From Lysobacterales bacterium (lineage in GTDB: Bacteria > Pseudomonadota > Gammaproteobacteria > Xanthomonadales > SZUA-5), in contig JABAQR010000038.1 in assembly GCA_019187485.1 (NCBI GenBank), positions 4,407-68,406 of the forward strand: DNA of 64,000 bases, read 5' to 3'. Positions within the stretch are counted from its first letter, which is position 1; every line of letters begins with the position of its first letter. Made by a program: the position numbers and the translations under genes. Under the pieces are notes generated by a model. It made no database searches. It was not told the DNA's origin and was given only the letters and a program-made list of their open reading frames with translations. Positions 3,119 to 43,617 of this stretch are shown one piece after another.

Positions 3119-3183
3119 GACTCGGGACTCGGGACTCGGGACTCGGGACTCGGGACTCGGGACTCGGGACTCGGGACTCGGGA
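3119..3183. repeat. Perfect tandem heptanucleotide repeat (GACTCGG)x9 plus a partial unit
   Basis: Counted directly: units start at 3119, 3126 ... 3175. The tract lies in the divergent spacer between the sigma gene and the nucleotidase gene. A degenerate inverted partner CCCAGTGCCGAAGG sits at 3211-3224. Confidence 0.97.
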
Positions 3184-3232
3184 TGCAGCATGATTGCGGC
3201 CTCGCACGCACCCAGTGCCGAAGGGTCGGATC

Positions 3233-4183
3233 GTGACCACCACTTCCACACCACCGGAAGCCCGCGACCCGGGTTCTGCATCCCGAACCCCGCCTTTCCC
3301 CGACCGCCTGGTCGTGGCGATTTCCTCGCGAGCGTTGTTCGATCTGTCGGCCGAGCACCTGCTGTTCGAGCGCGATGGGCTGGATGCCTACCAGGCCTAC
3401 CAGCTCGCCAACGAGGACGCCGTGCTGAAGCCCGGAATCGCGTTCCCGCTGGTGCAGAAGCTGCTGCGCCTGAACCAGATGAAACCGGACACGCCGCAGG
3501 TTGAAGTCATCCTGCTCAGCCGCAACAGCGGCAATTCGGGACTGCGCATCTTCAACTCGATCGAGCACTACGGGCTCGAAATCGTGCGCGCGGCCTTCAC
3601 CAACGGTGCGCCGCCCTTCCAGTACATCGAGCCCTTCGGCGCCAGCCTGTTCCTGTCGGCGCACGCCGAGGACGTGCGCCAGACGCTCGACGCCGGCTAC
3701 GCCGCCGCGAGCATCCTGCCCTCGCAGGCCAGTGCCAGCCGGCATCCGGAACTGCGCATCGCCTTCGACGGCGACGCGGTGCTGTTCTCCGACGAGGCCG
3801 AACGCGTCAGCCACAGCGAGGGCCTCGACCGCTTCCACGAAAGCGAGCGCGCGCTCGCGCAGCAGGCCTTGTCGGGCGGCCCATTCCGCAGCGTGCTGCT
3901 GGCGCTGCACCGGATCCAGGCGGCGTTTCCGGCCGAGCAGTCGCCGATCCGCACCGCGCTCGTGACCGCGCGTTCGGCGCCGGCGCACAAGCGCGTGATC
4001 CTGACCCTGCGCGAATGGGGCGTGCGCATCGACGAGGCGCTGTTCCTCGGCGGCCGCGACAAGGGTCCCTTTCTGGCCGCCTTCGGCGCCGACATCTTCT
4101 TCGACGACCAGCGCAAGAACGCCGAGAGCGCGAGCCGCTACGTGCCGACCGGGCACGTGCCGCACGGCGTCGCGAATCCCTGA
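3233..4183 (+). CDS. 5'-nucleotidase family protein (PF06189-like)
   Basis: The ORF is open from a TTG at 3194; the GTG at 3233 has AAGGG about 10 nt upstream. Sequence LVVAISSRALFDL...VILLSRNSGNSGLRIFNSIEHYGL...IAFDGDAVLFSDEAE...FFDDQ matches my recollection of this family. The start is uncertain. Confidence 0.7.
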   Translation: MTTTSTPPEARDPGSASRTPPFPDRLVVAISSRALFDLSAEHLLFERDGLDAYQAYQLANEDAVLKPGIAFPLVQKLLRLNQMKPDTPQVEVILLSRNSGNSGLRIFNSIEHYGLEIVRAAFTNGAPPFQYIEPFGASLFLSAHAEDVRQTLDAGYAAASILPSQASASRHPELRIAFDGDAVLFSDEAERVSHSEGLDRFHESERALAQQALSGGPFRSVLLALHRIQAAFPAEQSPIRTALVTARSAPAHKRVILTLREWGVRIDEALFLGGRDKGPFLAAFGADIFFDDQRKNAESASRYVPTGHVPHGVANP

Positions 4184-4247
4184 TCCCGCCGCGCAGCGCT
4201 GGACTGCCATTCAGCCGCAGGCAGTCGACGCGAGCTATGGTTCACGC

Positions 4248-5723
4248 ATGCAGCGCCTGCCCCTTGTCCTCGCCTGCTCGATCGCGCTCGCCGCCTGCAC
4301 GCCCGGCGTCGGTGTCGACGTGCGCCGCGCCGATGATGCGGCTGCACCAGCGCCGCCTGCGACGCCGATCGCGGCGCCGGTGAGCATGGAGCCATCGCCG
4401 GGTCTGGCGCCGCCGGTCGTGGCGTCGATGGCCGCCGACCTTGGCGGCCCCTTCGAATCGGCGCCGACGCTGGCGAGCGCCGAATTGCTGCCGGGTTTCG
4501 ACTTGATCGGCCCCGGCTACCGGGTCGCCGAGCAGGCTCCGGTGGTCGACTACTTCGGCCAGTTCCAACTGCGCAGCGATGTCGGCGCGCTGCTGGCCGA
4601 AGGCTCGCAGGTGCTGCGCTTGCGCGTGCGCGAACTCGAAGCGGTGCGCGCACTCGACCGGGTCGGCTATTCCGAGGTCTTCGTGGGCGCGGCGCGGCGC
4701 AGCGCGGAGCGCCCGGTCGAGGCGGTGCGCCAGGTGGGTGCGGAGCCGGTCGACACCGCTTCCGGCCTGCCGGCAGGAATCGGCCGTTACCTCGTGCGTG
4801 CGGCGCGCAACCTGCGGGAATTGGCGCTGGACTTGAACGACGTCGCACGCGATGCGATGGCCGGCGACCAGGAAGCGGCGCCGGATGGCAGGCCGAAAAA
4901 GACCACCGGCGAGCGCGCACAGAGAATCGTCACCCAGGCGACCCTGCGCTACATCGGCTACAACAAGGCGCGTCGCCAGATTGCGCGCGAGGTCGGTGTC
5001 GACCCTTACAGCACCAATCCCCTGCTCGACGAACGCCTCGATCGCCTCGCCTGGGCATCCTGGTCGGGCGCCAAGCTCACGGGTCTTGCGATCGGCATGG
5101 TCGGTGGGGTTGCCGGGCAGTTGCTGGGCTACGCGCGCGACGCCTACGAGCTGGTGTGGGAACTGCCGCCGGAGGATCTGAAGCGTCGCAATCTTCAAGT
5201 GCTGGCCGAACTTGGCATCACCGGCAAGCCCGCGCGCGATCTGGTGCGCCACGGCAGGGCGTTCACGCTGACCCAGCAGACCGAGTTCGTCGAACTGCTG
5301 CGCCTGCCGCTGTTCGCCGGCGCGCGGCGGCCGTTGTTCGAGCTGGCGCGCCACGCCGACCGCGAGGTGCACGCGCGCTTCCTGATCGACGCGCTGCGCA
5401 TGCTGCTGCACGCGGCACGCTCCGAATCCCCGCAGACGTACGCCGTCGTCGTCGGCACCGCGCCCGCGCTGCAGCGCGCGGATGGCAGTCACATCATCGC
5501 GCTGCCGGTGGACCACCTGTACTGGACCCGGGAAATTGCCGCCTTCGCCTGGCGCGACGATCTGATCGGCCGCCACAACCTGCTGCTGGTCGCCGGCAAC
5601 CTGTCGACAGCGGCACTGGACGCCTTCTCGCGAGCCGGCTGGAGCGTGCGCGAACGTGTGGACCCGCACGCATCCGACGAGGAGACGGATGCGATCGACG
5701 GTGCGCCGACATCGAGTCCGTGA
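4248..5723 (+). CDS. Hypothetical lipoprotein (491 aa)
   Basis: The N-terminus MQRLPLVLACSIALAAC carries a lipobox (LAAC). Codon third positions are GC-rich throughout. No recognisable catalytic motif. Confidence 0.75.
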   Translation: MQRLPLVLACSIALAACTPGVGVDVRRADDAAAPAPPATPIAAPVSMEPSPGLAPPVVASMAADLGGPFESAPTLASAELLPGFDLIGPGYRVAEQAPVVDYFGQFQLRSDVGALLAEGSQVLRLRVRELEAVRALDRVGYSEVFVGAARRSAERPVEAVRQVGAEPVDTASGLPAGIGRYLVRAARNLRELALDLNDVARDAMAGDQEAAPDGRPKKTTGERAQRIVTQATLRYIGYNKARRQIAREVGVDPYSTNPLLDERLDRLAWASWSGAKLTGLAIGMVGGVAGQLLGYARDAYELVWELPPEDLKRRNLQVLAELGITGKPARDLVRHGRAFTLTQQTEFVELLRLPLFAGARRPLFELARHADREVHARFLIDALRMLLHAARSESPQTYAVVVGTAPALQRADGSHIIALPVDHLYWTREIAAFAWRDDLIGRHNLLLVAGNLSTAALDAFSRAGWSVRERVDPHASDEETDAIDGAPTSSP

Positions 5724-5830
5724 GGCGGGACACGGGGCCCGGAAAGGCCTGCTCATCGTGGCATTCCTGCGGTTTCCGGTCGGACCCCGCCATGGCACTG
5801 CACCAGGTCTCCCCGCTCCCGTGCCCTGCG

Positions 5831-6625
5831 TTACCCGGTCTTCACCGCCAGCGGCTTGATCCGCGCGACCATCGCCGCGGCCACCTTGAGGTTGCCGGCG
5901 ATGACGTTGCCGCTGTCGAACCAGCGCTCGTCGCCGTCGAAGTCGAGCACGCCCCCGCCGGCTTCGCGCACCAGCAGGGCGCCCGCCGCCATGTCCCAGG
6001 GCTGCAGGCCGTATTCGAAATAGCCGTCGAGGCGACCGCAGGCCACGTAGGCGAGGTCGAGCGCCGCCGAGCCGGTGCGGCGCAGGTCCTCGGCGTCCTC
6101 GAGCAGCGCCTTGACCATCCGCATCTGGGTGTTGAAGCGTGCGCGCTGCTTGAACGGGAAGCCGGTCGCGACCAGCGCACCGGCCAGACCGAGGCGCTGG
6201 CCGACGCGGATGCGACGATCGTTCAAATAGGCGCCGCCGCCCTTGGTGGCGTGGAAGATCTCGTCGCGCACCGGGTCATAGACCACGCCGTGCTGGATCA
6301 CGCCTTCTTCCATCAGCGCGATCGACACCGAGCAGTGCGGGAAGCCGCGCATGAAATTGCTGGTGCCGTCGATCGGGTCGATCACCCAGACGTAGCGCGA
6401 GTTGCCACTGCGGCCGCTCTCCTCGCCCCAGATCGCGTGCTCGGGATAGGCCTTGCGGATCTCGCGGATGATCTCCTGCTCGGCCAGACGGTCGGCCTCG
6501 GTGACGAAATCGAACCGGCCCTTCTCGCTGACGGCGATCGCGTCGGCGCGGTGGATGCTGCGCTGGATCACCGCACCGGCCCGGCGCGCGGCCTGGACGG
6601 CGATGTTGACGGCAGGCTTGCGCAT
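5831..6625 (-). CDS. suhB: Inositol monophosphatase family protein
   Basis: 264 aa. The WVIDPIDGTSNF motif and GAALDLAYVACGRLDGY are typical of SuhB/IMPase. Confidence 0.9.
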   Translation of the reverse strand: MRKPAVNIAVQAARRAGAVIQRSIHRADAIAVSEKGRFDFVTEADRLAEQEIIREIRKAYPEHAIWGEESGRSGNSRYVWVIDPIDGTSNFMRGFPHCSVSIALMEEGVIQHGVVYDPVRDEIFHATKGGGAYLNDRRIRVGQRLGLAGALVATGFPFKQRARFNTQMRMVKALLEDAEDLRRTGSAALDLAYVACGRLDGYFEYGLQPWDMAAGALLVREAGGGVLDFDGDERWFDSGNVIAGNLKVAAAMVARIKPLAVKTG

Positions 6626-6756
6626 GGCGGCGATCCGGACCTCAGGGGACCGCGCAGCCTAACAGACGCGCCGGCAGCAACCAAACCGCAGCCAAGGCTG
6701 TGCCTGCGACTCCGGACGGTTGCTATCTTTGCCGCTGATCGACCCGGGACCGCGCC

Positions 6757-7155
6757 ATGACCAGAGAACAACTGACCGCGATGTACATGGAGTACCTGAC
6801 TGCTGAGGGCTTCCTGCCGCGCATCGACGCCGACGGCGATGTCGCCTTCAAGTTCGAGGGCGGCAACTACGTGCTCATGATCGCGGACAACGATCCCGAG
6901 TACTTCCGTCTCGCCTACCCAGGCTTCTGGGCGATCGAGAACGAGGAAGAACGCATCCGCGTACACCAGTCGGCGTTGCAGGCCTGCATCGACATCAAGG
7001 TCACCAAAGTCTATCCGGTGGCCAACGACACCTGGGCCGCGGTCGAGATGTTCTGCAACCCGCCCGAGCACTTCAAGAGCGTGTTCATGCGCTCGCTGCG
7101 CGCGATCAAGGCCGGGGTCGACAGCTTCCGCAAGCACATGCACGCGCAGAACTGA
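6757..7155 (+). CDS. Hypothetical small cytosolic protein (possibly YbjN-like)
   Basis: 132-aa ORF with balanced, non-shadow amino-acid composition (MTREQLTAMYMEYLTAEGFLPRIDADGDVAFKFEGGNYVLMI...). The family assignment is only a recollection of similar sequences. Confidence 0.65.
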   Translation: MTREQLTAMYMEYLTAEGFLPRIDADGDVAFKFEGGNYVLMIADNDPEYFRLAYPGFWAIENEEERIRVHQSALQACIDIKVTKVYPVANDTWAAVEMFCNPPEHFKSVFMRSLRAIKAGVDSFRKHMHAQN

Positions 7156-7454
7156 CCCGGATGTCGGACCAGCGGCCCAGTACCGGCCGCACCTTCCCGC
7201 CATCGCCGTCTTCTCCATCCGTGCGGACCTCGACGGCGGCAGCCGCCCCGCGGTTCCGGAAGCCACCTCCGCAGGGTACCGGCTCGTGTCGGCGTGGACC
7301 GTTCCGGGACCACGCCCACGGGCAGCAGGAACTGACCTTCCGCAACCGTCACCGCTGCTGCCCTTCCCTGCCGACGAACGATGGTTCACGCGCGGCTCGC
7401 ATCGTGGCCATCCCGGTGCGCGATGATGGCGGCGTCGACCTCGAGGATCTTCCC

Positions 7455-7868
7455 GTGCGTGTTTTGAGTCCGCTGACTGGGATCGCGCTGATGGCGCTGG
7501 CAAGCTGCACGACGTCGGCGGCGTACCGCGCACGGCTGGACGCGCGGCTGGCCGAGTACGAGGCGCACGCCGGCGCACCGGTCAAGCAGATCCGGCTGTA
7601 CACCGGCCTGGACCGTTGGGAAGTGCTGGCGCCGGACCGGATCGCAATCTTCATTGGCGCCAACCGCGCTTATCTCCTGAAGTTGCGGGGACCGTGTTCG
7701 GGCCTGGAGTTCCAGACCCGGATCGGCATCAGTTCGACCAACCAGTCGATCGACCTGAAATTCGACCGGCTCTACTTCGAGCACCAGGTCTGCTACTTCG
7801 CGGAGTTCCGGCCGATCGACTATCGGGCGGTGAAGCGGGAACGAGCGGCACGTTCGAAGACGGACTGA
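7455..7868 (+). CDS. Hypothetical lipoprotein (DUF6491-like)
   Basis: The GTG at 7455 gives VRVLSPLTGIALMALASC with a lipobox. The upstream part of the 7161 ORF is Pro/Arg-rich shadow-like sequence and is rejected. Confidence 0.65.
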   Translation: MRVLSPLTGIALMALASCTTSAAYRARLDARLAEYEAHAGAPVKQIRLYTGLDRWEVLAPDRIAIFIGANRAYLLKLRGPCSGLEFQTRIGISSTNQSIDLKFDRLYFEHQVCYFAEFRPIDYRAVKRERAARSKTD

Positions 7869-7871
7869 AGC

Positions 7872-14325: not shown

Positions 14326-14439
14326 GTCCGCAGAGGACGCAAAACCCGGAGGGAAGACTCGGTGGCAATTCACACGGACAATCGCCTGCCGAAAAACCTG
14401 CCGACATCCATTCCGCCTCTCTTTGCGTCCTTTGCGGAC
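14326..14439. repeat. Palindromic intergenic element with GACGCAAAG-type arms
   Basis: The left end GTCCGCAGAGGACGCAAA (14326-14343) is complementary at 17 of 18 positions to the right end TTTGCGTCCTTTGCGGAC (14422-14439). It starts 10 nt after the ggt stop. Confidence 0.9.
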
Positions 14440-19057: not shown

Positions 19058-19948
19058 TCAGTCGAAGCCGAGCCGACGCAGGGCGCGCTCGCTGTCGCTC
19101 CAGTCCGGGCGCACCTTGACCCACAGTTCCAGGTGTACGCTTCCCTCGAGGAGCCGCTCGATCTCCTCGCGCGCCTTCGTGCCGATCCGTTTGATGCGCT
19201 CGCCACCCTCTCCGATCACGATCGCCTTCTGGCCATCGCGCTCAACCCAGATGATGGCGGCAATGCGCCGCCGTGCACCCTCGACAACGAACTGCTCGAC
19301 TTCCACCGCACAAGCGTAGGGCACTTCCTCGCCGAGCTGGCGCATCAGCTGCTCGCGCACCAGTTCAGCCGCCAAATGGCGTTCGCTGCGGTCGGTCAGG
19401 GTGTCGGGCTCGTACAGTGCCTCACGCTCGGGCAGCAGGGCAACGAGGCGTCGGCAGGCTTCCTCGGTTCCTTGCTCCTTGCGCGCGCCGACCAACAGGA
19501 CTGCAACGAAATCGTGGCGCTTGCCGATCCGGTCGAGGTAGGGCAGCAATTGCGGCTTGTCCTTGACGAGGTCGATCTTGTTGACCGCCAGTGCGATCGG
19601 CAGACCCGTTTGGCGTGCCCGCGCGAGCGCGTCGTCGTCGCCGCGCTTCCACTGACCGGCCTCGACCACCAGCACGACCAGGTCGACCGCCGCGAAAGCC
19701 TGTTCGACCGCGCGGTCCATTGCCTTGTGCACCGCCGTCGGCCGGCGTTGCTGCATCCCAGGCGTGTCCAGGAAGGCGATTTGGCCGTCGTCGAAGCTGC
19801 GCACACCGAGCAGGCGCTGACGGGTGGTGTGCGGCTTGGCGGACACCGCGCCGAGATGGGCGCCGACGAAGGCGTTCAGCAGGCTGGACTTGCCGACATT
19901 GGGCCGGCCGACGAGCGCCACATGTCCGGAGCGGAAGAGAGTGGTCAT
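19058..19948 (-). CDS. era: GTPase Era
   Basis: The ATG at 19948 gives MTTLFRSGHVALVGRPNVGKSSLLN (G1). DTPG, NKID and a C-terminal KH region follow. Confidence 0.93.
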   Translation of the reverse strand: MTTLFRSGHVALVGRPNVGKSSLLNAFVGAHLGAVSAKPHTTRQRLLGVRSFDDGQIAFLDTPGMQQRRPTAVHKAMDRAVEQAFAAVDLVVLVVEAGQWKRGDDDALARARQTGLPIALAVNKIDLVKDKPQLLPYLDRIGKRHDFVAVLLVGARKEQGTEEACRRLVALLPEREALYEPDTLTDRSERHLAAELVREQLMRQLGEEVPYACAVEVEQFVVEGARRRIAAIIWVERDGQKAIVIGEGGERIKRIGTKAREEIERLLEGSVHLELWVKVRPDWSDSERALRRLGFD

Positions 19949-20046
19949 GCCGGCGCCGACAAGGTGGCGGGTGGGCACGAGAACACGCAGGCACGCAAGA
20001 AAAGGCGCGGCGCCCTACGGGCACATGCACGCCGACGATGAACAGC

Positions 20047-20170
20047 GGAGGGCACGCGGGTACGCGAGCTTGCGCTCGGATACACGATTTCCTGCGCGTG
20101 CCTGCGCACCGACGAAGTAGAAATATGCGGCTTCACGTGCCCTCGTGTCCTCGTGTCCTCGTGTCCTCGT
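20047..20170. repeat. Intergenic element with (CCTCGTGT)x3.75 arm and degenerate inverted partner
   Basis: CCTCGTGT units lie at 20141, 20149 and 20157, with a partial unit at 20165-20170. The partner GGAGGGCACGCGGGTACGCGAG lies at 20047-20068. Weaker ACACG-type units extend to about 19983. The element ends 13 nt from the rnc stop. Confidence 0.8.
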
Positions 20171-20183
20171 AGGGGCTGGTGCC

Positions 20184-20879
20184 CTACTGCGCCGCGCCCA
20201 CCACCGCCGCACCAGCACCGGCGTCGATGCGTTCGAGCAGCGCTGCGGCTGCGGCCTGCTCCGCAGCCTTGCGGCTGCGGCCCGCGGCATCGCTGCAAAG
20301 ATCGAGATCGACCACGCGGCAGAGCACACGGAAAACCTTGTCGTGATCCTTGCCGACAGCGTCGAGCATGCGGTACTCGGGTAGCGCCATGCCGCGCGCC
20401 TGCAACCATTCCTGCAACCGCGTCTTGGCATCCTTGGCGGCGCCGATGTCGGCCGCATCGAAAGCACCGGCGAAGAGCACGCACACCAGCGCCCGACACC
20501 GCTCCCAGCCACCGTCGAGATAGACCGCAGCGACCAGCGCTTCCAAGGTGTCGGCGAGGATCGAGTCGCGCCGGAATCCGCCGCTCTTGAGCTCTCCCCC
20601 ACCCATGCGCAAGCAGTCGGATAGCTCGATGCCGCGCGCCAGCTCCGCAAGGCTGGATTCACGGATGAGCGCCGCGCGCAGGCGCGTCAGGTCGCCCTCC
20701 GGCGCGCGCGGAAAGCGCGCATACAGCTCGATACTGACCACCGCGTTGATCAACGCGTCGCCGAGGAACTCGAGGCGCTCGTAGTTGGCGTGCCCGGCGC
20801 TGCGATGGGTGAGCGCGCGTTCCAGCAAGGCCGGATCGGCGAACTCGATCCCGAATCGGAGCAGCGGATTCGGGGTCAC
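20184..20879 (-). CDS. rnc: Ribonuclease III
   Basis: The ERLEFLGDA signature and a C-terminal dsRNA-binding region; 231 aa. Confidence 0.95.
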   Translation of the reverse strand: MTPNPLLRFGIEFADPALLERALTHRSAGHANYERLEFLGDALINAVVSIELYARFPRAPEGDLTRLRAALIRESSLAELARGIELSDCLRMGGGELKSGGFRRDSILADTLEALVAAVYLDGGWERCRALVCVLFAGAFDAADIGAAKDAKTRLQEWLQARGMALPEYRMLDAVGKDHDKVFRVLCRVVDLDLCSDAAGRSRKAAEQAAAAALLERIDAGAGAAVVGAAQ

Positions 20880-21262
20880 TCGTTGACGGCGTCGGTGCGT
20901 CCGAGTTCGACCGAGTGATCGAACTTGGCCACCACGTCCAGGTTGTAGACGAGCGGTTTGCGGACCTCGTAGGCGATGCGCAGGAAATAGCCGTTCTGAC
21001 GGACCAGTTGCACGTTCTGGCGCTGCACGCTCTCGACGTAGCTGGTGTAGAAAGTCGCGTCCAGGATCTTCCAGACCTGATCGGGCGCCAGTCGCGCCGA
21101 GCCCGGCGTCTGCTGGACCTTCACCATGGCCCCCTTGACCGCGTAGTACTCGGTGTACATCGGAAATAGCTTGGCGCCGACGAAGAAGAAAAATCCGAGG
21201 ACGGCCGCCACCAGGACGAAGCCGATCAAGGTGATGCCGCGTTGACGCGTTGCCATGCTCAT
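20876..21262 (-). CDS. DUF4845-like membrane-anchored protein
   Basis: Pilin-like N-terminus QRGITLIGFVLVAAVLGFFFFVGAKLFPMYTEYY. It overlaps the rnc start. Confidence 0.75.
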   Translation of the reverse strand: MSMATRQRGITLIGFVLVAAVLGFFFFVGAKLFPMYTEYYAVKGAMVKVQQTPGSARLAPDQVWKILDATFYTSYVESVQRQNVQLVRQNGYFLRIAYEVRKPLVYNLDVVAKFDHSVELGRTDAVNE

Positions 21263-21271
21263 GTGCCTACC

Positions 21272-22096
21272 TCAGCCCAGTTTCATGCCGATCCGATCCC
21301 AGGACACGAAGCCCCGGATCTTCCAGTCCCAATGCATCCAGACGAAGAAGGCACGCCCGACCAGGTTCTGTTCCGGCACCAAGCCCCAGGCACGACTGTC
21401 TTCGCTGTTGTCGCGATTGTCGCCCATCATAAAGTACTGGCCCGGTGGAATCTCCCAGGTGCCGCCCGGCAACAGCCCGCGGCCGCCGCGCAGCAGAATC
21501 TGGTGCTCGATGCCCAGCAGCGATTCCTTGCGCAAATCGCCGCCGGTGGACTCGCTGTTGCTGCCTTCGCCGAAGTATCGCCCCACCGGGGTCTGTTGCA
21601 TCGCCACGCCGTTCACGTAGAGCACATCGTTGACATAGCTGATCTTGTCGCCTGGCAGACCGACCAGACGCTTGACGTAATTCTTGTCGGGATGCGTCGG
21701 TGGGCGGAACACCACGATGTCGCCGCGCTGCGGTTCACCGACGTCGAGGATCTTGGTGTGCACCACCGGCAGTCGTACGCCGTAGCTGTATTTGTTCACC
21801 AGGATGAAATCGCCGATCAGCAGCGTCGGCACCATCGAACTGGACGGGATCGTGAACGGCTCCACCAGGAAGGAGCGAATCAGCAGCACCGCGAGGATCA
21901 CCGGGAAGAAGGACTTGCTGTACTCGACGATCACCGGATCGCGCGCCGCCGGCGCGGCCGCCGCCTGCTGCTCGCCGGCCACGCCGAAGCCCGCCCCCGC
22001 CAGCGCCAGCCGGCGCTTGCGGAAGAACAGGCTGTCCACCGCCCAGACGAAGCCGGTCAGGCCGGTCAACACCACCAGAATCAGCGCGAAATCCAT
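21272..22096 (-). CDS. lepB: Signal peptidase I
   Basis: Catalytic Ser box SSSMVPTL, Lys box (YVKRLVGLPGD) and the GDNRDNSEDSR box. Confidence 0.93.
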   Translation of the reverse strand: MDFALILVVLTGLTGFVWAVDSLFFRKRRLALAGAGFGVAGEQQAAAAPAARDPVIVEYSKSFFPVILAVLLIRSFLVEPFTIPSSSMVPTLLIGDFILVNKYSYGVRLPVVHTKILDVGEPQRGDIVVFRPPTHPDKNYVKRLVGLPGDKISYVNDVLYVNGVAMQQTPVGRYFGEGSNSESTGGDLRKESLLGIEHQILLRGGRGLLPGGTWEIPPGQYFMMGDNRDNSEDSRAWGLVPEQNLVGRAFFVWMHWDWKIRGFVSWDRIGMKLG

Positions 22097-22150
22097 GTTC
22101 GTTCCGTCACTCCACGTCCACAGCGCACGCGCTGCTCAGAAGGCCTGATT

Positions 22151-22304
22151 GGGGACGCAAAGTACGCAAAGGGGCGCAAAGGACGCGAAGAGAGCGAAAG
22201 CCACCGGATGGCAATCGGATCAGACACTGGCTCTTGCTTCCTTTGCGTCCTTTGCGCCCCTTTGCGTCCTTTGCGTCCTTTGCGTCCTTTGCGTCCTTTG
22301 CGTC
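22151..22304. repeat. Palindromic intergenic element with 9-10 bp GACGCAAAG / CTTTGCGTC tandem arms
   Basis: The left arm has 5 units (22154-22200). The right arm has 8 units (22231-22304), including five consecutive perfect CTTTGCGTC copies. The centre is CCACCGGATGGCAATCGGATCAGACACTGG. Confidence 0.95.
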
Positions 22305-22335
22305 AAAAATCAACCGCCCTGATCAAGGCGGAAGC

Positions 22336-24135
22336 CTACTTGTCGTCCACCTGCAGCACCGCGAGGAAGGCTTCCTGCGGGATCTCCACGCGGCCGACCT
22401 GCTTCATGCGCTTCTTGCCGGCCTTCTGCTTCTCGAGCAGCTTGCGCTTGCGTGTGATGTCGCCGCCGTAGCACTTGGCGAGCACGTTCTTGCGCAGCGC
22501 CTTGACCGTGGTGCGCGCGATGATCTGCGCGCCGATCGCGGCCTGGATGGCGACATCGAACATCTGCCGCGGGATCAGCTCGCGCATGCGCTCGGCGAGG
22601 TCGCGACCGCGCCGGTCGGCCTGACTGCGGTGCACGATCAGGCTGAGCGCATCGACGCGGTCGCCGTTGATCAGCACGTCGACGCGTACGAAGGGGCCGG
22701 CCTCGAAGCGGTCGAGGTGGTAGTCGAAGGAGGCATAGCCACGACTGGCGCTCTTGAGGCGGTCGAAGAAATCCAGCACCACCTCGGCGAGCGGCATCTC
22801 GTAGTTGATCTGCACCTGGGTGCCGAGGTAGTTGATGCCCTTCTGGCGGCCGCGCTTTTCCTCGCACAGCGTGATCACCGGCCCGACGTAGTCCGGCGGC
22901 ACCAGGATGTTGGCGACGATCAGCGGTTCGCGGACTTCCTCGATCTCGCTCGGCAACGGCAGCTTGGCCGGATTGTCGATCTCGATGACCTCGCCGCCCT
23001 TCTTGACGATCTGGTAGACCACGGTCGGCGCGGTCGTGACCAGGTCGAGGTCGTATTCGCGTTCCAGGCGCTCCTGGACGATCTCCATGTGCAGCATGCC
23101 GAGGAAGCCGCAGCGGAAGCCGAAGCCCATCGCCTCGGAGGATTCCGGCTCGAACTGCAGCGCGGAATCGTTGAGCTTGAGCTTTTCCAGCGCTTCGCGG
23201 AGCGCGCCGTAGTCGTCGGCCTCGGTGGGGAACAGGCCGGCGAACACGCGCGGCTTGATCTTCTGGAAACCGGGCAAGGCCTCGGTGGCGGGCTTGGCCG
23301 CCTGGGTCAGGGTATCGCCGACCGGCGCGCCGTGGACTTCCTTGATCGCCGCGCACACGAAGCCGACCTCGCCGGTGCCGAGGCGTTCGCGCTGCACGCG
23401 CTTGGGCGTGAACACGCCCACCTGCTCCACGTACCAGCTGCGTCCGGTCGACATCACCAGGATCTTGTCGCCGACCGCGATCTCGCCCTGGACCACACGC
23501 ACCAGCGAGATCACGCCGAGGTAGTTGTCGAACCAGGAATCGACGATCAGCGCCTTCAGGGTCTTGTCGGCCGGGTCGGCCGGCGGCGGAATGCGCTGGA
23601 CGATCGACTCCAGCACCCTGCGCACGTTGAGGCCGGTCTTGGCGCTGATCTCGATGGCATCGGTGGCGTCGATGCCGATGACGTCCTCGATCTCCTGGCG
23701 CACCTTGTCCGGGTCGGCGCTCGGCAGGTCGATCTTGTTCAGCACCGGCACCACTTCCAGGCCCTGTTCGACCGCGGTGTAGCAGTTGGCGACGCTCTGC
23801 GCCTCCACGCCCTGGGCGGCGTCGACCACCAGCAGCGCGCCTTCGCAGGCGGCCAGCGAGCGCGAGACCTCGTAGGAGAAATCCACGTGCCCGGGGGTGT
23901 CGATGAAGTTCAGCTCGTAGGTGTTGCCGTCCTCGCTCTTGAACGGCAACGAGACCGACTGCGCCTTGATCGTGATGCCGCGCTCGCGCTCGATCGGGTT
24001 CGAGTCGAGCACCTGGTCCTCCATCTCGCGATCTTCCAGGCCACCGCAGATCTGGATGAAACGGTCGGCCAGCGTCGACTTGCCATGATCGACGTGGGCG
24101 ATGATCGAGAAGTTACGGATGAGCTTCATGGACAT
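22336..24135 (-). CDS. lepA: Translation elongation factor 4
   Basis: The ATG at 24135 gives [25 protein letters not shown], followed by DTPGHVDF and NKID. The 19-codon extension in the track is rejected. Confidence 0.96.
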
Positions 24136-29209: not shown

Positions 29210-29238
29210 GTTGCTCCTCGCCACTGCTCGACCGCGAT

Positions 29239-29266
29239 TGTGACCGGGTCTTGCCGCGAAAGTTCC
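29239..29266 (-). promoter_or_regulatory. Sigma-E/AlgU-type autoregulatory promoter candidate
   Basis: The minus strand reads GGAACTT (29266-29260), then 16 nt, then TCACA (29243-29239), about 30 nt upstream of the rpoE ATG. It matches the GGAACTT-N16-TCnnA consensus known for sigma-E promoters. Confidence 0.6.
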
Positions 29267-29315: not shown

Positions 29316-29404
29316 GGCGGGGCTGGGGACTGGGGCTGGGGCGCAATCACGGCATTTCGGTCGGGCCGAAGTGCTCGAATTCGCACCCCAGCCCCAGTCC
29401 CGCC
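29316..29404. repeat. Palindromic intergenic element with GGGGCT/GGGGACT tandem arms
   Basis: The left arm is GGCGGGGCTGGGGACTGGGGCTGGGGCG (29316-29343). The right arm is CGCACCCCAGCCCCAGTCCCGCC (29382-29404), which carries one unit fewer. The core contains its own hairpin, CATTTCGG...CCGAAGTG. Confidence 0.93.
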
Positions 29405-33894: not shown

Positions 33895-33906
33895 GGGCTC
33901 CTGAGT

Positions 33907-34006
33907 GTCGGTTGTCGGTTGTCGGTTGTCGGTGGCGAGCTTCACACGATGAAGCGTCGGCCGGGATTGCGGGCGACGGTTGCCAACAGACAGCATCCGC
34001 CGACCG
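33907..34006. repeat. Intergenic element with (GTCGGTT)x4 arm and short inverted partner
   Basis: Units lie at 33907, 33914, 33921 and 33928 (the last is GTCGGTG). The partner CCGCCGAC lies at 33997-34004. An internal hairpin CTTCA-CACGA-TGAAG is present. The element ends 10 nt from the mltG stop. Confidence 0.8.
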
Positions 34007-34016
34007 GCAGACTGCT

Positions 34017-37245: not shown

Positions 37246-37354
37246 GGATGCGAAGGACGCAAAGAACAGCGGAAGTCGGAGTTGGACATGGCCCGGGCAC
37301 CCGGCACTCCCGCCCGAGGGGCTCTCCTGCTCTCCTTTGCGTCTTTTGCAGATC
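37246..37354. repeat. Palindromic intergenic element with GACGCAAAG-type arms
   Basis: The left arm is GGATGCGAAGGACGCAAAGAACAGCGGAAG (37246-37275). The right arm is CTCCTGCTCTCCTTTGCGTCTTTTGCAGATC (37324-37354). It ends 22 nt from the fabF stop. Confidence 0.88.
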
Positions 37355-38621: not shown

Positions 38622-38634
38622 TGAGACTCCATCA

Positions 38635-38733
38635 GGAAAAAGGAAAAAGGAAAAAAGGAAAAAGGGAGAGCGAAAAGCGGGACCGCGGCGTAGACCGCTC
38701 TTCCCTTTTCCATTTTCCCTTTTCCTTTTTCCC
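38635..38733. repeat. Palindromic intergenic element with GGAAAA(A) / TTTTCC tandem arms
   Basis: GGAAAAAGGAAAAAGGAAAAAAGGAAAAAGGGAGAGCGAAAAGCGG - GACCGCGGCGTAGA - CCGCTCTTCCCTTTTCCATTTTCCCTTTTCCTTTTTCC. It lies between acpP and fabF. Confidence 0.93.
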
Positions 38734-38738
38734 AACGA

Positions 38739-38765
38739 GCGCGCGCGACCGCGGGTCGCACGCGC
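38739..38765 (-). terminator. GC-rich 12-bp stem-loop immediately downstream of acpP
   Basis: Positions 38739-38750 pair with 38754-38765 around a 3-nt loop. The single mismatch is a G.U pair in the acpP-sense RNA. There is no U-tract, so it may be an attenuator or a stabiliser rather than a terminator. Confidence 0.45.
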
Positions 38766-38772
38766 GAGGCCA

Positions 38773-39012: not shown

Positions 39013-39195
39013 GGCTACTCGGTTCCTCGATCTGACATGTTGGAGCGGCTGTTTGCCCCCTTGAGTCAAGGGGGCGACCGGGCGCAGAGCGCCCGGTGGG
39101 GGATGTGGGTGCAAGCAGGCTCTGGAGTTCCGGTTTTCGAGGTCGCTTGCCGCCCGAAAAGGGTGCAGATGATAGGGGCGAAACCGCCGCAGCGG

Positions 39196-39933
39196 CTACG
39201 GCATGTACATGCCGCCGTTGACGTGCAGGGTCTCGCCCGTGATGTAACCGGCCGCCGGCGACGCCAGGAAGGCCACCGCCTTCGCGATGTCGGCGGCCTC
39301 TCCGAAGCGCCCGAGCGGCACGTCGGCGAGCAAGGCGGCGCGCTGTGCTTCCGGCAGTGCGCGCGTCATGTCGGTGTCGATGAAGCCCGGCGCGACCACG
39401 TTCGCGGTGATGCCGCGGCTGCCGACCTCGCGCGCCAGCGACTTGGTGAAACCGATGATGCCGGCCTTGGCGGCCGCGTAATTGGCCTGGCCGGCGTTGC
39501 CGGTGAGGCCGATCACCGAGGCGATCGAGATGATGCGGCCCTGGCGTTCGCGCAGCATCCGCTTCAGCACCGCCTTGGACAGCCGGAACACGCTCGCGAG
39601 GTTGGTGTTGATGACCGCGGCGAAGTCCTCGTCCTTCATCCGCAGCAGCAACTGGTCGCGGGTGATGCCGGCGTTGTTGACGAGCACGCGCACCGGACCG
39701 AGGTCCTTCTCGACCGACTCCACGAAGGCCTCGATCTGCGCCGCGTCGGCGACGTCGAGCACGCGCCCCTGGCCGCGCTCGCGCAACCGCTCCGTGATCG
39801 CGACGGCGCCGGCCTCGCTGGTCGCGGTGCCGACCACGAAGTGCCCCTGGGCGGCAAGTTCGTCGGCGATCGCGGCGCCGATGCCGCGGCTGGCGCCGGT
39901 GACGATCGCGAGCTTGCGGTCTGCGTCGCTCAT
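39196..39933 (-). CDS. fabG: 3-oxoacyl-ACP reductase
   Basis: The ATG at 39933 gives AIVTGASRGIGAAIA, followed by NAG and YAAAKAG motifs. Confidence 0.95.
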   Translation of the reverse strand: MSDADRKLAIVTGASRGIGAAIADELAAQGHFVVGTATSEAGAVAITERLRERGQGRVLDVADAAQIEAFVESVEKDLGPVRVLVNNAGITRDQLLLRMKDEDFAAVINTNLASVFRLSKAVLKRMLRERQGRIISIASVIGLTGNAGQANYAAAKAGIIGFTKSLAREVGSRGITANVVAPGFIDTDMTRALPEAQRAALLADVPLGRFGEAADIAKAVAFLASPAAGYITGETLHVNGGMYMP

Positions 39934-40874
39934 GCCTTCAGGCCCTCCAGGGCGGCGTCGAATCCGGCCGGCTCGCCGATGGCCTGGCCGGCGATCTCCG
40001 GCGCGATGCGCTTGACCATGCCAGTCAGCACCTTGCCGGGGCCGCACTCGATGGCATGGCGCACGCCGCGCGCGGCAAGCGCCTGCACCGACTCGGTCCA
40101 GCGCACCGGCGCGTGCAACTGCAAGGCGAGCGCGGCGCGGATCGCGGCCGCATCGGCGTGGCTGGCGACATCGGCGTTGTGGAGGACGGGGATGGCGGGT
40201 GCTGCGATCGCGATGTCGGCCATGAAGGTGGACAGGCACTCGGCGGCGCTCCGCATCAGCGGCGAGTGCGAGGGCACGCTGACCGGCAGCCGGATCGCGC
40301 GCTTGACGCCGCGGGCGGCGAGTTCGGCAAGCGCACGGTCCATCGCCGCGGCGGCGCCCGACAGCACGATCTGGCCGGGTGCGTTGAGGTTGGCCGGGAC
40401 GACGGGCTCGGCGTCGGTCGATACCTGCGCGCAGACTTCGGCCAGCAGCGGCAGCTCGGCGTTGAGCACCGCCGCCATCGCGCCCTGCCCTTCCGGCACG
40501 GCTTCCTGCATCAACCGGCCGCGCTCGCGCACGAGGCGCGTCGCGTCGACCAGCGTGAGCGCGCCAGCGCACACCAGCGCGGTGTATTCGCCGAGGCTGT
40601 GGCCGGCCATCGCGACGGGCTCGGCACCGCCGGCCGCGCGCCAGGCGCGCCAGCAGGCCACCCCGGCCGCGAGCAGCACGGGCTGGGTGTTGACGGTTCG
40701 GTTGAGCTCGGCCTCCGGACCCTGCTGGGCGAGCGCCCACAGGTCGAGCCCGATCGCGTCGGAGGCTTCGGCGAAGGTCTCGCGGACCGCCGGGTGCGCG
40801 TCGGCGAGCGCCGCCAGCATGCGCAGGGCCTGCGAGCCCTGGCCGGGAAACAGAAAAGCCAGATCGTTGCGCAT
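39930..40874 (-). CDS. fabD: Malonyl-CoA-ACP transacylase
   Basis: The ATG at 40874 gives LAFLFPGQGSQ, with the GHSLGEY active site. Confidence 0.95.
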   Translation of the reverse strand: MRNDLAFLFPGQGSQALRMLAALADAHPAVRETFAEASDAIGLDLWALAQQGPEAELNRTVNTQPVLLAAGVACWRAWRAAGGAEPVAMAGHSLGEYTALVCAGALTLVDATRLVRERGRLMQEAVPEGQGAMAAVLNAELPLLAEVCAQVSTDAEPVVPANLNAPGQIVLSGAAAAMDRALAELAARGVKRAIRLPVSVPSHSPLMRSAAECLSTFMADIAIAAPAIPVLHNADVASHADAAAIRAALALQLHAPVRWTESVQALAARGVRHAIECGPGKVLTGMVKRIAPEIAGQAIGEPAGFDAALEGLKA

Positions 40875-40890
40875 GGTCTTCGGAAACGGA

Positions 40891-41865
40891 TCAGATGCGG
40901 AGCAGCGCCGAACCCCAGGTGAAGCCGCCGCCGAAAGCCTCCAGCAGCAGCAACTGGCCGGGCTTGATCTGGCCGCTGTGAACACCGTGGTCGAGCGCGA
41001 GCGGCACCGAGCCGGAGGAGGTGTTGCCGTGCTTGTTCACGGTCACGATCACCCGTTCCATCGGCATGTCGAGGTGCTTGGCGGTGGCCGAGATGATGCG
41101 CAGGTTGGCCTGGTGCGGTACCAGCCAGTCGATCGCGTCCTTGGACAAGCCGTTGTGCGCGAGGGTCTCGTCGACGATCCGCGAGAGCGTACGCACCGCG
41201 ACGCGGAAGACCTCATTGCCGCTCATCAGCACGCGCACGCCGTGGTTCGGCTCGTCCTTGAAGCCACGCGAGACGCCGACCGGGTTGTGCAGCAGGTTCT
41301 GGTACTGGCCGTCGGCGTGGATGTGCGTGGAGATCACGCCGGGCGCGTTGTCGGCGCGCAGCACCACCGCGCCGGCGCCGTCGCCGAACAGCACGCAAGT
41401 GCCGCGGTCGGACCAGTCGAGCATGCGCGACAGGGTCTCGGCGCCGATGACGAGCGCGGTGCGCGCGGCGCCGGTGCGCACGAACTTGTCGGCGATCGAC
41501 AACGCGTACAGGAAGCCGGTGCAGGCGGCGTTGACGTCGAAGGCCGGGCAGTCCTTCGCGCCGAGGCGGTGCTGGACCAGGCAGGCAGTGCTCGGGAAGA
41601 TCACGTCCGGCGTGGTCGTGCCGACGATGATCAGGTCCAGTTCGGACGCGGGAACACCGGCGGCCGCAAGCGCCTTCTCGGCGGCGGCCACGGCCAGGTC
41701 GCTGGTGTACTCACCGTCGGCAGCGATGTGCCGCTGCTCGATGCCCGTACGCTCGCGTATCCACTGGTCGGTGGTCTCTACCCGCTTCTCCAACTCGGCG
41801 TTGGTGAGGATGGTGGCCGGCAGATGGCTGCCGGTCCCGATGATCCGGGCAGAGATCGAACTCAT
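40891..41865 (-). CDS. fabH: 3-oxoacyl-ACP synthase III
   Basis: 324 aa with the NAACTGF active-site Cys and HQANLRI and GNTSSGS motifs. Confidence 0.95.
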
Positions 41866-41922
41866 GCAGTGGCGCTCGTCCTGGGCTCGGGACCGCTGCG
41901 GGTCCCGCGGGCGGGCAGGCTA

Positions 41923-42123
41923 TCAGCCTTCGGCGGCTTCGACTTCGACGACCTTGCGCTCGATCACCTTGCGGCCGCGGTAATAGCCGTCCTTGGTGAT
42001 GTGGTGGCGCAGGTGGGTCTCGCCGCTGGTCTGGTCGACCGACACGGTCGCCGCGCTCAGCGCGTCGTGGGAACGGCGCATGCCGCGGCGGGAGGGCGTC
42101 TTGCGACTCTTCTGAACGGCCAT
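41923..42123 (-). CDS. rpmF: 50S ribosomal protein L32
   Basis: [22 protein letters not shown]; 66 aa. Confidence 0.93.
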
Positions 42124-42139
42124 GTCTGTTGCAACTCCT

Positions 42140-42652
42140 TCAAATATTTCTACTTTCGCGCTTGAACCCGGCCAGCGCCGCGAACGGATGCGGCCGCTCT
42201 TCCTCTACTGCCGGCGCAGGCGCCGGAGCGTTCACTTCGACGCCGGGCTTGCGCGCGATCACCGGCACCGCAAGGATCAACTCGTCCTCCAGCAATGCCA
42301 GTGGATCGACCAGACCCGCGTCCATCAGCGCCGCCTCGAAGCCTTCCGGAAGTCCGGCTTCGTCGGCCTCGTCGGCGATCAGCCCGAGACGCACATCCAC
42401 TCTCACCGGCAACTCGAATCGATCCAGCGTGGTCTGGCAGACCAACGGCAACGCAGCGTCCGCCTGCAGCGTCGCCATTCGCTGGCCGATCTCATTGCGT
42501 CCGAATTTCAGCTCGAAACGCAATTCGCCGCGGGTGTCCGCCAACAAGCCAGCCAGCCGCTCGAAAACGGACAGCGGAACGCTACCGGAATAGACCCGAC
42601 CCGTCGCCACCGCGCGTTCGACATCCACTCGCTCGGGCAATGGCGCATGCAT
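42140..42652 (-). CDS. yceD: DUF177 protein YceD
   Basis: 170 aa, acidic, located upstream of rpmF in the conserved yceD-rpmF-fab arrangement. Confidence 0.85.
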
Positions 42653-42878
42653 AGCCTTGGGATCGTAGTGGGAATGGTTGCCTATGTCAATGCCTGCTTG
42701 TCCCGCGCATGCACAGTCCCGACCAGAGGGCGCATGACGTTATGCTGCGTACGCCCGCGGGCACGCCAAACCGGGCGCGGGGCACGGGAACTGCTGGCGC
42801 AATCGAGGGCCACGGCAAGTCCGCGACCCATCCCGGGCCTCGTCCTCTGCGCCCCCGCTGCATTCGGAGGGTTCACGC

Positions 42879-43469
42879 ATGCACCATTTGCTCCGCCTTG
42901 CCCTGCTTTGCGCCGCACTGCTGCTGATCGCATGCGGCTCCACCTCGGGCCTGCGCACCGAGTCCGCCGCCGCGCGCAAGCAGATCGGCGACTACACCCG
43001 CGTCGAGGTGGCCGATTTCGCGGTGACCGCGACCAAGGACACCAAGGACGACCACGAGGCGCAGGCGAAGTACCAGGCGCAACTGGCCGAGGCGCGCGCG
43101 CGCATCGCCGACCTGATCGCCAAGGAGATCGAGGAGCGGGCGGCCTTCGACGAAGTCAGCCGTGCCGCGCTCGAAGGCACCGCGCTGCGCGTGACCGGCA
43201 CCATCACCCGCTACGAGGAAGGCAACGTCGTCGCGCGTATGGCCACCGGCTTCGTCGGCCAGGCCCACTTCGAGGCCACCGTGACCGTCTCCGACCGCGA
43301 GAGCGGCGAGGTCCTCGGCAATTTCGTGATCGACCGCAACAGCTGGCCGCTGCCGATCGGCGCCTCCAGCAACGCGGTCCAGAACGTCGGCATGTTCATG
43401 TCCGGCGCCGCCAAGCGCATCGCCGACGAGCTGGCGGTGGCGAGGGGGAAGAAGTCGGCGCGGAAGTAG
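42879..43469 (+). CDS. DUF4410-like lipoprotein
   Basis: MHHLLRLALLCAALLLIAC lipobox; 196 aa. Confidence 0.7.
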   Translation: MHHLLRLALLCAALLLIACGSTSGLRTESAAARKQIGDYTRVEVADFAVTATKDTKDDHEAQAKYQAQLAEARARIADLIAKEIEERAAFDEVSRAALEGTALRVTGTITRYEEGNVVARMATGFVGQAHFEATVTVSDRESGEVLGNFVIDRNSWPLPIGASSNAVQNVGMFMSGAAKRIADELAVARGKKSARK

Positions 43470-43481
43470 CTGAAAGGGAAG

Positions 43482-43617
43482 GAGCGGGGCTGGGGGCTGG
43501 GGGCTGGGCGCATTGTTAGAGTCCGCCGGATTCCTGCGGCTTTTCTGGCAAGCGCCAGCGTTCACTGACCGGTAGCCGACGTCCACCGCGCACACGCCCC
43601 AACCCCCAACCCCGCTC
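43482..43617. repeat. Palindromic intergenic element with GCTGGGG / CCCCAAC tandem arms
   Basis: The left arm is GAGCGGGGCTGGGGGCTGGGGGCTGGGCG (43482-43510). The right arm is CGCCCCAACCCCCAACCCCGCTC (43595-43617). The core is 84 bp. The element starts 12 nt after the preceding stop codon. Confidence 0.93.

Follow-up and report, generated by a model that had tools for sequence, protein, structure and literature searches.

Hairpin-forming intergenic elements with inverted tandem-repeat arms in a Xanthomonadales genome and their distribution in other bacteria

Introduction

What keeps two arrays of short tandem repeats complementary to each other across a unique centre, when the repeated unit changes from one intergenic spacer to the next? 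The question is raised by a 64 kb stretch of DNA from a Lysobacterales bacterium (contig JABAQR010000038.1 of assembly GCA_019187485.1; the whole stretch is called the window below). A first-pass annotation had described nine intergenic loci in it, here labelled E1 to E9, each with a head-to-tail array of a short unit followed by its reverse complement. The account that we favour, tentatively and just short of calling it probable, is that these loci are DNA-level elements of a foldback type, which change by slippage and by arm-to-arm copying and are tolerated at the 3' ends of genes.

The first-pass annotation did not recognise the architecture, but it has already been published for the GGGAATC repeats of Xanthomonas (PMC4692102) and for hairpins of the cyanobacterial STRR (PMC2670836). 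Rehm et al. (2015) reported about 185 GGGAATC loci per Xanthomonas genome with 2 to 26 copies, about 90% of them intergenic, and 70 to 75 cases in which two nearby arrays stand in convergent inverted orientation (PMC4692102). Most of these loci are flanked by aligned open reading frames (ORFs), with the G-rich array at most 50 nucleotides (nt) past the stop as read on the coding strand, and between divergent ORFs they are seldom found; their length varies between related strains, they were read as formers of G-quadruplexes (G4), and the study ended without a function (PMC4692102). STRR are intergenic heptamer arrays of Nostoc and Anabaena; for the hairpins that they form between the co-transcribed genes hupS and hupL, a role in transcript stabilisation or in the coupling of translation has been proposed (PMC2670836). 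Among the periodic repeats of prokaryotes, according to Mori et al., those of intergenic heptamers are the most abundant, and they are unexplained (PMC6344855). The window holds an informative variant of this published and unexplained architecture with a wider distribution, not a new kind of object. New are the sharing of CGCAAAG-type arms across phyla and a range that exceeds the known one, and, to our knowledge, a polarity rule by which the G-rich arm comes first; the mirroring of unit variants, the lack of a target-site duplication and the lack of a G.U bias towards the RNA strand are further new observations. The common feature of the repeats described here is the inverted pair, i.e. the hairpin, and not the G4; together with the fast gain of the elements, the cross-phylum arm family and the polarity rule, it makes their origin and function testable.

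Inverted arms and position of the nine elements

Tandem arrays of 6-9 nt units were confirmed by Tandem Repeats Finder (TRF) and in the sequence at all nine loci for which they had been described, and all of them lie outside predicted genes. For the inverted partner, the reverse complement of each array was aligned to its flank and compared with 1000 shuffles. A clear partner arm with 16-43 aligned bases is present in E2, E4, E5, E7, E8 and E9 (p<=0.001), and E1 (p=0.01), E3 (p=0.03) and E6 (p=0.015) consist of one clean array and a degenerate or decayed partner only. The inverted tandem-arm architecture that had been ascribed to all nine loci is accordingly largely real, namely real at six loci and marginal at three. 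RNA folding of the whole spacers, compared with dinucleotide shuffles, gave strong z-scores for E8 (-8.2), E4 (-7.2), E5 (-7.1) and E9 (-5.3), weaker ones for E2 (-3.8) and E3 (-3.4), and no significant deviation for E1 (-1.1), E7 (-1.0) and E6 (-0.7). Folding energies are about equal on both strands. Single arms fold weakly (0 to -11 kcal/mol), with the exception of E1, which reaches -32.7 kcal/mol via G.U pairs. Unequal arms, as noted before, are found in E4 (about 4 versus 7.8 units of GACGCAAAG), in E5 (3.8 versus about 2.5 units) and in E1, where 9.3 units face a decayed arm.

The elements E2 to E9 sit between co-directional genes, and their first arm begins 8-39 nt past the upstream stop codon, in good agreement with the 10-40 nt given for eight of the nine loci by the first-pass annotation. 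E1 is the exception, because it lies in a divergent spacer between the gene of an extracytoplasmic-function (ECF) sigma factor and a 5'-nucleotidase gene. Its supposed stop belongs to an ORF at 2599-3120 that is antisense to the ECF sigma gene, has no Pfam match and is spurious. The G-rich arm comes first at all nine loci. A common plus-strand orientation of all nine elements, considered as a hint to replication, was rejected; an inverted repeat is identical on either strand, and the real signal is therefore the intrinsic polarity with the G-rich arm in front. Runs of G are restricted to E1, E5 and E9 and are missing in E2, E3, E4, E6, E7 and E8.

Arm families and mirrored units

Pairwise and multiple alignments showed that the similarity between loci is confined to the arms. 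One arm family comprises E2, E4 and E7 with GACGCAAAG-type units (the CGCAAAG type), whose exact 9-mer occurs nowhere else in the window, and a second one comprises E5 and E9 with GGGGCT(G) units; E1, E3, E6 and E8 are singletons in the arm comparison. The centres of the elements have no match elsewhere in the window or in any of the 241 loci that were fetched from metagenomes, assemblies and relatives (labelled with L-numbers). The nine loci, previously treated as one family, hence resolve into two arm families and four singletons with unrelated centres, and the inner-arm strings said to be common to E4 and E8 and to E3 and E7 fall within the range of shuffled controls. What does stand is the existence of intergenic elements that can form hairpins from arms of tandem repeats, and the match between the two arms of one locus.

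The match between arms extends to irregularities of the unit. In 97 elements, unit variants (9-mers) are identical at the same index in 35.5% of the cases when counted from the outer end and in 26.7% when counted from the loop, compared with 14.7% at other indexes. E4 provides an example: its irregular unit GGGCGCAAAG appears mirrored as CTTTGCGCCC at the matching place of the opposite arm, and five perfect extra units are located at the outer end of one arm only.

Gain and copy-number change

The same sequence as in the window is found on contigs of a metagenome-assembled genome (MAG), “Xanthomonadales bacterium PRO6” (GCA_021404805.1), and likewise in three more assemblies at NCBI, a JGI contig and several assemblies from Logan. 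Among GTDB species representatives, the top LepB match is only 62-64% identical and stems from Lysobacterales/Rhodanobacteraceae MAGs. The relatives used for comparison are loci encoding a LepB of 75-86% identity. Their lepA-lepB spacer measures 7-31 nt and holds just a ribosome-binding site, in contrast to 239 nt in PRO6, where it contains E4. In the relatives, rnc and era either overlap or leave 46 nt between them, and in PRO6 the spacer with E3 comprises about 205-235 nt (205 nt to the GTG of the ORF at 19978, 235 nt to the called era start at 19948). In the relative L087, with conserved synteny, the yceG-holB spacer has 30 nt versus 122 nt in PRO6 (E6) and the spacer between the GGDEF/EAL gene and rpoE has 61 nt versus 191 nt (E5). 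These short spacers document that E3, E4, E5 and E6 are lineage-specific additions. The relatives carry elements of their own with other units at other spacers, e.g. CTTGGTT/AACCAAG, GGGCAC-type and G-run arms in L093, and the turnover is therefore fast. Elements are gained quickly even inside strings of housekeeping genes (lepA-lepB-rnc-era, acpP-fabF).

P0003, whose LepB is 89% identical, is the closest of the relatives found. Its contig starts 211 nt upstream of lepB, no gene is called in that stretch, and rnc overlaps the next gene; P0003 may carry an E4-like element and lack E3.

Copy-number change is documented for E1, which has nine units in the window and in GCA_963204805.1 and eight in GCA_045864915.1 and GCA_021404805.1. 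The heptamer is the sole indel across 12.4 kb of otherwise 99.9-100% identical sequence (9218-9273 in L216/L218 versus 3119-3183 in the window). Ongoing slippage, proposed earlier on account of the unequal arms, is thereby supported for E1; E2 to E9 showed no differences among the other near-clonal assemblies compared.

CGCAAAG elements in other bacteria

An exact search for GACGCAAAGGACGCAAAG in metagenome contigs returned at least 120 loci from contigs with a G+C content of 32-74%. Among the matches listed, to which the following counts refer, none belongs to PRO6. The G-rich arm comes first in 95 CGCAAAG-like inverted pairs, and the C-rich arm in only four. The centre has a median length of 60 nt (range 4-394), three units per arm are the commonest state, and the unit number differs between the arms in 46 of the 95 pairs. 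The outer ends are conserved and mirrored (TTT-(CACC/GTCC/CTC/CAC)GCAAAG); E2 with its terminus GTCCGC represents the GTCC type and ends like the metagenome copies. According to crude gene calls, 27 elements are located between co-directional, four between convergent and two between divergent genes. In a control of 1.41 Mb of unselected sequence, CGCAAAG pairs were present only in the window, L017 and L034. One locus with 32% G+C is assigned to Bacteroidota by its NqrF protein, and the CGCAAAG family therefore crosses phyla.

On the contigs that bear CGCAAAG elements there are further elements built of different units, among them ACGAGGGC and AAGGACACA, both similar to the unit of E3. Some elements are built into each other: CGCAAAG arms enclose CACAGAG arms in L227 (640-800, 5190-5386), both with TTTCACC termini, CGCAGAG arms enclose GGGATT-type arms in L240 (~4530-4790), and E8 counts as a composite due to its inner GAGCGAAAAG unit. 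In the sample ERZ761602, copies of an entire element, with the centre of 34 nt and about 30 nt of flank, are present at several places and in both orientations. A 320-bp tandem repeat was observed in L148 (5760-6660), each unit of which consists of one CGCAAAG element and a Pseudomonas-REP-like palindrome (GTGGGAGCGG...CCGCTCCCAC).

The same build also occurs with other units. A scan of 80 lepB neighbourhoods from GTDB genomes revealed elements of the same build at non-homologous spacers, all between co-directional ORFs, with the units CGCAAAGG in L017, CACGAAAAT in L023, AAGATAA in L039, AATGAAA in L049 and ATTCAAC in L070 (Thioalkalivibrio). Within a sample of 461 short-unit arrays, enriched for CGCAAAG loci by the way of its collection, 156 have a reverse-complement partner within 300 nt, compared with eight in a reversed but not complemented control. 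The polarity holds for other units as well: G exceeds C in the 5' arm of 36 elements with non-CGCAAAG units versus four. CGCAAAG arm 17-18-mers found no match in an exact-sequence literature search, and BLAST of the consensus arm against plasmids gave two weak matches only. Phages were considered as a vector and dropped; a few viral contigs carry elements, but there is no evidence that phages spread them.

Comparison with known repeats

The Xanthomonas repeats occur in the same order (Xanthomonadales), and GGGACTC, the unit of E1, falls under the definition (GGGANTN)n given for them (PMC4692102). Arrays of 6-9 nt units, a convergent partner (six clear, three marginal) and a position past the stop codon at eight of the nine loci place the elements in the class that is formed by the Xanthomonas repeats and STRR. 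Unlike Xanthomonas with essentially one unit, the window contains at least five unrelated units, most of which are unable to form G4. A GGGNATC or GGGGA(C/T)T unit with at least four G-tracts is lacking at most loci; the class fits, the published sequence family does not. Centres, arm mirroring, gain and loss, and the distribution of a non-G4 family are not analysed in the Xanthomonas paper (PMC4692102). The GGGGACT unit of E5 resembles the STRR1-type unit GGGGA(C/T)T of Nostoc (PMC4692102). STRR differ, however, in that they belong to another phylum and have another unit set; no CGCAAAG family has been described and no polarity rule reported for them. Vioque is said to have found in 1997 that STRR expand a helix of the RNase P RNA.

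Like REP, BIME and REPIN, the elements are short and intergenic, lie at gene 3' ends inside operons, form inverted hairpin pairs and lack a target-site duplication. REP-type repeats have known RNA effects (mRNA stabilisation, polarity), and each REP forms an imperfect palindrome of about 20-40 nt, has a conserved head of the GTAG type and is linked to a gene for RAYT, a Y1 transposase. In the present elements, by contrast, the arms are arrays of direct tandem units without folding of their own, apart from E1 with its G.U pairs. GTAG...CTAC palindromes and the E. coli REP consensus have no match at the elements, and RAYT is absent among 36 Pfam-scanned window proteins and from the external gene calls of window 1-48.6 kb. 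The consensus strings of ERIC, Correia/NEMIS and BOX gave no match at up to five mismatches except one chance match of BOX, and no SMAG-like palindromes were found at the elements. The first-pass annotation was right, as far as this consensus comparison goes, that the elements are not REP/BIME, ERIC, Correia or SMAG. The Rfam search found no family match in the window at gathering score; eight metagenome loci yielded only matches to miRNA precursors far below threshold.

The CGCAAAG elements are reminiscent of miniature inverted-repeat transposable elements (MITEs) in having terminal inverted repeats with a defined outer end, at which the mirroring is best anchored. They differ from MITEs by the missing target-site duplication and by their centres, which are unshared in the window and shared only in sample ERZ761602. 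Foldback (FB) transposons of Drosophila comprise long inverted repeats of short tandem units with unequal arms, a variable loop and heterogeneous copies; they are eukaryotic, kilobase-sized and partly coding, and they generate 9-bp target duplications. Tandem-unit arms, unequal arms and a variable loop recur in our elements, but with the 9-bp target duplication absent this is a resemblance only.

Intrinsic terminators are the remaining point of reference, given that the hairpin is located just past the stop and that E8, L017 and L049 have an A-rich 5' and a U-rich 3' side. The loops of 24-85 nt, the repeat-built stems of 20-45 bp and the absence of a consistent U-tract after the stem are nevertheless unlike terminators, and so is the position upstream of lepB and era, two genes that are essential in E. 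coli. A scan for terminators (G+C-rich stem, 3-8 nt loop, U-tract) called none of the large hairpins and detected only a small one at 22314-22331, the sole terminator-like match in 19900-22400. Integron attC sites were dropped as candidates since the flanking genes are core housekeeping genes, and mimicry of CsrA sites or Shine-Dalgarno sequences by the purine arm, judged on sequence grounds, was inconsistent across units.

Origin and maintenance of the arms

Our preferred reading is that the elements are copies of a non-coding 'foldback' class of DNA, in which two inverted arms of 6-9 nt tandem units enclose an unrelated centre. They would have arrived recently in the PRO6 lineage, in formerly very short spacers at gene 3' ends and mostly inside co-directional strings (lepA/lepB, rnc/era, acpP/fabF/pabB, yceG/holB). 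Replication slippage would alter the unit number, and we infer from the mirrored unit variants that hairpin-templated strand switching copies one arm to the other; the combination of both would allow each element to evolve its own unit while its arms stay complementary. The CGCAAAG type would represent a dispersed family with defined termini (TCACC/GTCC-GCAAAG...), whose presence in very different bacteria suggests that it has spread, presumably by a mechanism that leaves no target-site duplication. Transcripts would fold into hairpins of 20-45 bp just past the stop codon, and likely consequences, judging from the established behaviour of long hairpins, are protection of the upstream 3' end by an exonuclease barrier, partial termination and, for stems that exceed about 20 bp, cleavage by RNase III. 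These RNA effects would be tolerated side effects and not the reason for the existence of the elements; with the G-rich arm in first position, Rho would never meet the C-rich arm in unpaired form.

Several findings weigh against this reading. Flanking direct repeats of 86 elements do not exceed 4 nt, and a target-site duplication was not found among them (matches versus control: 8 versus 3 for k=2, 3 versus 1 for k=3, 2 versus 1 for k=4). No transposase-like ORF recurs in 0.85 Mb of flanks, no mobilising gene is present among the 36 window proteins scanned against Pfam (about 24 predicted genes lay outside the scan), and the external gene calls for window 1-48.6 kb list no transposase family. 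A recurrent neighbour gene was rejected as mobiliser because the families that recur are all generic ones (PAS/GGDEF/kinase, ABC ATPase). In most copies the centre is unrelated to the others, unlike in ordinary mobile elements. The units of E3, E6 and E8 lack a second copy in the window, and growth in place is therefore possible for these three. The test for G.U pairs, which is described below, has no more than 74 informative mismatches behind it and depends on crude gene calls, and the elements may have an RNA function after all.

The scattered distribution could have a broader basis. A superfamily that crosses phyla would unite tandem arms of the type 'C-R-C + purine run' (CGCAAAG, CACAGAG, CACGAGG) with TCACC-type termini, nesting, no target duplication and a strict G-arm-first polarity; it would spread via single-stranded DNA or hairpin-templated copying, and the excess of prokaryotic intergenic heptamers would largely be its footprint. 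We regard this extension as rather doubtful, though not far-fetched.

The position of the elements, 8-39 nt past stop codons in co-directional spacers, and their depletion between divergent genes, which was also seen in Xanthomonas (PMC4692102), are what one would expect of selected RNA structures that arose in place, i.e. terminators or attenuators, 3' exonuclease barriers or RNase III sites that tune their neighbours and whose stem is lengthened by slippage. The strong stems of 20-45 bp with z-scores down to -8, the location of E5 at the expected place of a terminator ahead of an rpoE promoter motif and the proposed stabilisation of transcripts or coupling of translation by the STRR hairpins between hupS and hupL (PMC2670836) point in the same direction. 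However, close relatives live with spacers of 7-61 nt or with overlapping genes, the large hairpins fail the terminator pattern, and terminator-like sites are not enriched. Selection for an RNA hairpin should be visible in an excess of sense-strand G.U pairs, but the 29 CGCAAAG-type elements of assigned direction (E2, E4 and metagenome copies) contain 35 arm mismatches compatible with G.U in sense and 39 in antisense orientation, and the equal folding energies of both strands agree with this result. Identical arms in Bacteroidota and Gammaproteobacteria are moreover unexpected from independent local selection. We consequently consider locally selected RNA structures a fairly unlikely explanation. 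The first-pass annotation had taken matching arms as the signature of a selected hairpin, in RNA or DNA, or of a mobile hairpin-forming element; the missing G.U bias and the absence of the elements from the spacers of relatives speak against a selected RNA hairpin, and the matching arms are for these reasons better explained by common origin and copying at the DNA level.

The elements could also be pure mutational by-products without any dispersal: a small hairpin, such as a terminator with A-tract and U-tract, grows by slippage, template switching copies the growth to the other arm, and the unit is invented anew at each locus. This scenario accommodates the different units of the loci, the perfect outer units on one arm only (E4, E1), the copy-number polymorphism of E1 and the mirrored variants. 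It also suits E8, whose GGAAAAA arrays flank the GAGCGAAAAG unit as their possible source, the A-rich 5' and U-rich 3' arms, which look like extended bidirectional terminators, and the vicinity of E4 to a small terminator-like hairpin. Slippage of a 7-31 nt spacer cannot, however, create unique centres of 24-85 nt and 50-100 nt of additional new spacer. CGCAAAG arms with identical termini moreover recur at three loci of the window and on contigs of 32-74% GC, and one sample holds copies of whole elements; we consider this scenario unlikely. It is very improbable that the arrays act as G4 formers or as arrays of protein-binding sites in DNA and that the hairpin is incidental. E1 (GGGACTC)9, E5 and E9 do have at least four G-runs, like the GGGNATC and GGGGA(C/T)T repeats that form G4 in vitro (PMC4692102), and inverted tandem sites are typical of operators. 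But E2, E3, E4, E6, E7 and E8 exhibit the same architecture and position without G-runs, the CGCAAAG family cannot form G4, at 7-9 bp the spacing does not keep phase with the DNA helix, and hundreds of sites at gene 3' ends are unlike a regulator. Finally, the chance that the elements are assembly artefacts of a MAG is practically nil. Short-read contigs do break inside E4, as illustrated by the Logan contigs L002-L006 (position 1 = window 22174), where all short-read lepB contigs begin 78 nt upstream of lepB, but for the regions covered, four independent assemblies at NCBI, a JGI contig and several assemblies from Logan contain identical elements in the interior of contigs. The practical implication is that the elements break short-read (de Bruijn) assemblies and vary in copy number.

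The individual elements

The array of E1 (3119..3183, TRF) consists of 9.3 perfect tandem copies of GACTCGG (= GGGACTC) and is assigned to neither strand; according to Pfam the flanking genes are the ECF sigma gene on the minus and the 5'-nucleotidase gene on the plus strand, and 3254-3292 is a possible decayed arm. E2 (14326..14439, plus strand) is an element of the CGCAAAG type between the genes for gamma-glutamyltranspeptidase and a hydrolase of the MBL fold. Its arms 14326-14346 (GGTCCGCAGAGGACGCAAAAC) and 14422-14439 (TTTGCGTCCTTTGCGGAC) are complementary at 17 of 18 bases (p=0.001). E3 (19979..20170, minus strand) fills the rnc-era spacer. Its array at 20136-20170, identified by TRF as (CCTCGTGT) x4.4, begins 13 nt past the rnc stop, and degenerate segments at ~19980-20002 and 20050-20056 form the partner.

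E4 (22153..22304, minus strand), again of the CGCAAAG type, occupies the lepA/lepB spacer with arms at 22153-22203 and 22228-22304 that are 88% complementary over 51 nt (p=0.001). A small terminator-like hairpin on the minus strand (22314..22331; CCGCCTTGATCAGGGCGG then TTGATTTTTG) comes after the lepA stop and ahead of the first arm of E4. E8 (38634..38733, minus strand) in the acpP/fabF spacer is composed of (GGAAAAA)n / (TTTTTCC)n with arms at 38634-38677 and 38701-38733 (p=0.001), which contain an inner GAGAGCGAAAAG unit, and a G+C-rich hairpin at ~38739-38766 precedes it on the sense strand. E4 and E8 are hence each preceded by a separate small G+C-rich hairpin between stop codon and first arm, and the metagenome copies L152, L165 and L190 likewise come after a hairpin and a T-run. 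The elements may prefer terminator sites or derive from them.

E5 (29316..29404, minus strand) with GGGGCT/GGGGACT units is situated 3' of the GGDEF-EAL gene, in a position upstream of the rpoE promoter region; the arms 29316-29342 and 29386-29404 share a perfect match of 16 nt (p=0.001). Between E5 and rpoE, a sigma-E-type promoter motif (GGAACTT-N16-TCACAA) is present at ~29236-29265 on the minus strand and conserved in the relative L089. Located between the gene end and the promoter, E5 takes a position where a terminator would be expected. E6 (33906..34009, minus strand) starts with a (TGTCGGT) x4 array at 33906-33933 (TRF) that ends 11 nt before the holB start, and its decayed partner at 33983-34009 begins about 10 nt past the yceG/mltG stop. 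E7 (37249..37350, minus strand) in the fabF/pabB spacer is assigned to the CGCAAAG type by the similarity of its arms to E2 and E4; the 27-nt arms 37249-37275 and 37324-37350 are 78% complementary (p=0.001). E9 (43478..43621, plus strand) consists of (GGGGCTG)n between a DUF4410 gene and a TCAD9/phosphatase gene, with 34-nt arms at 43478-43511 and 43588-43621 that are 82% complementary (p=0.001), and its second arm stops 10 nt before the ATG. The TCAD9/phosphatase gene (43632), which begins 10 nt past this arm, has no recognisable Shine-Dalgarno sequence, and an (AACCAAG)6 arm in L093 directly adjoins the start codon of a FemAB-like gene.

Genomic surroundings

The gene map of the window (G+C 59-71%) was derived from codon statistics and is consistent with external gene calls and Pfam. 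It includes two co-directional strings, rpmF-fabH-fabD-fabG-acpP-fabF-pabB-pabC-yceG-holB-pilZ-...-GGDEF/EAL-rpoE-rseA-mucB and lepA-lepB-DUF4845-rnc-era. About 5 kb beyond the left end of the window contain no additional element, and the remaining spacers of the window are either empty or hold ordinary hairpins, such as a textbook terminator inside the 52573-52686 spacer. A non-repetitive inverted repeat of 29 nt, 83% complementary, surrounds 86 nt in the spacer of two co-directional genes, a GGDEF and an OmpA-like one (50584-50727). It corresponds to a 'whole-spacer hairpin' layout without tandem units, and no copy of its arm is present in the 241 fetched loci. A large ORF without significant Pfam match (52687-55392) is followed by the overlapping genes pilMNOPQ (55440-60542). 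This region (52687-60542) is free of elements and has a G+C content of 0.59-0.65, below that of most of the window, and ponA is located divergently at 60756.

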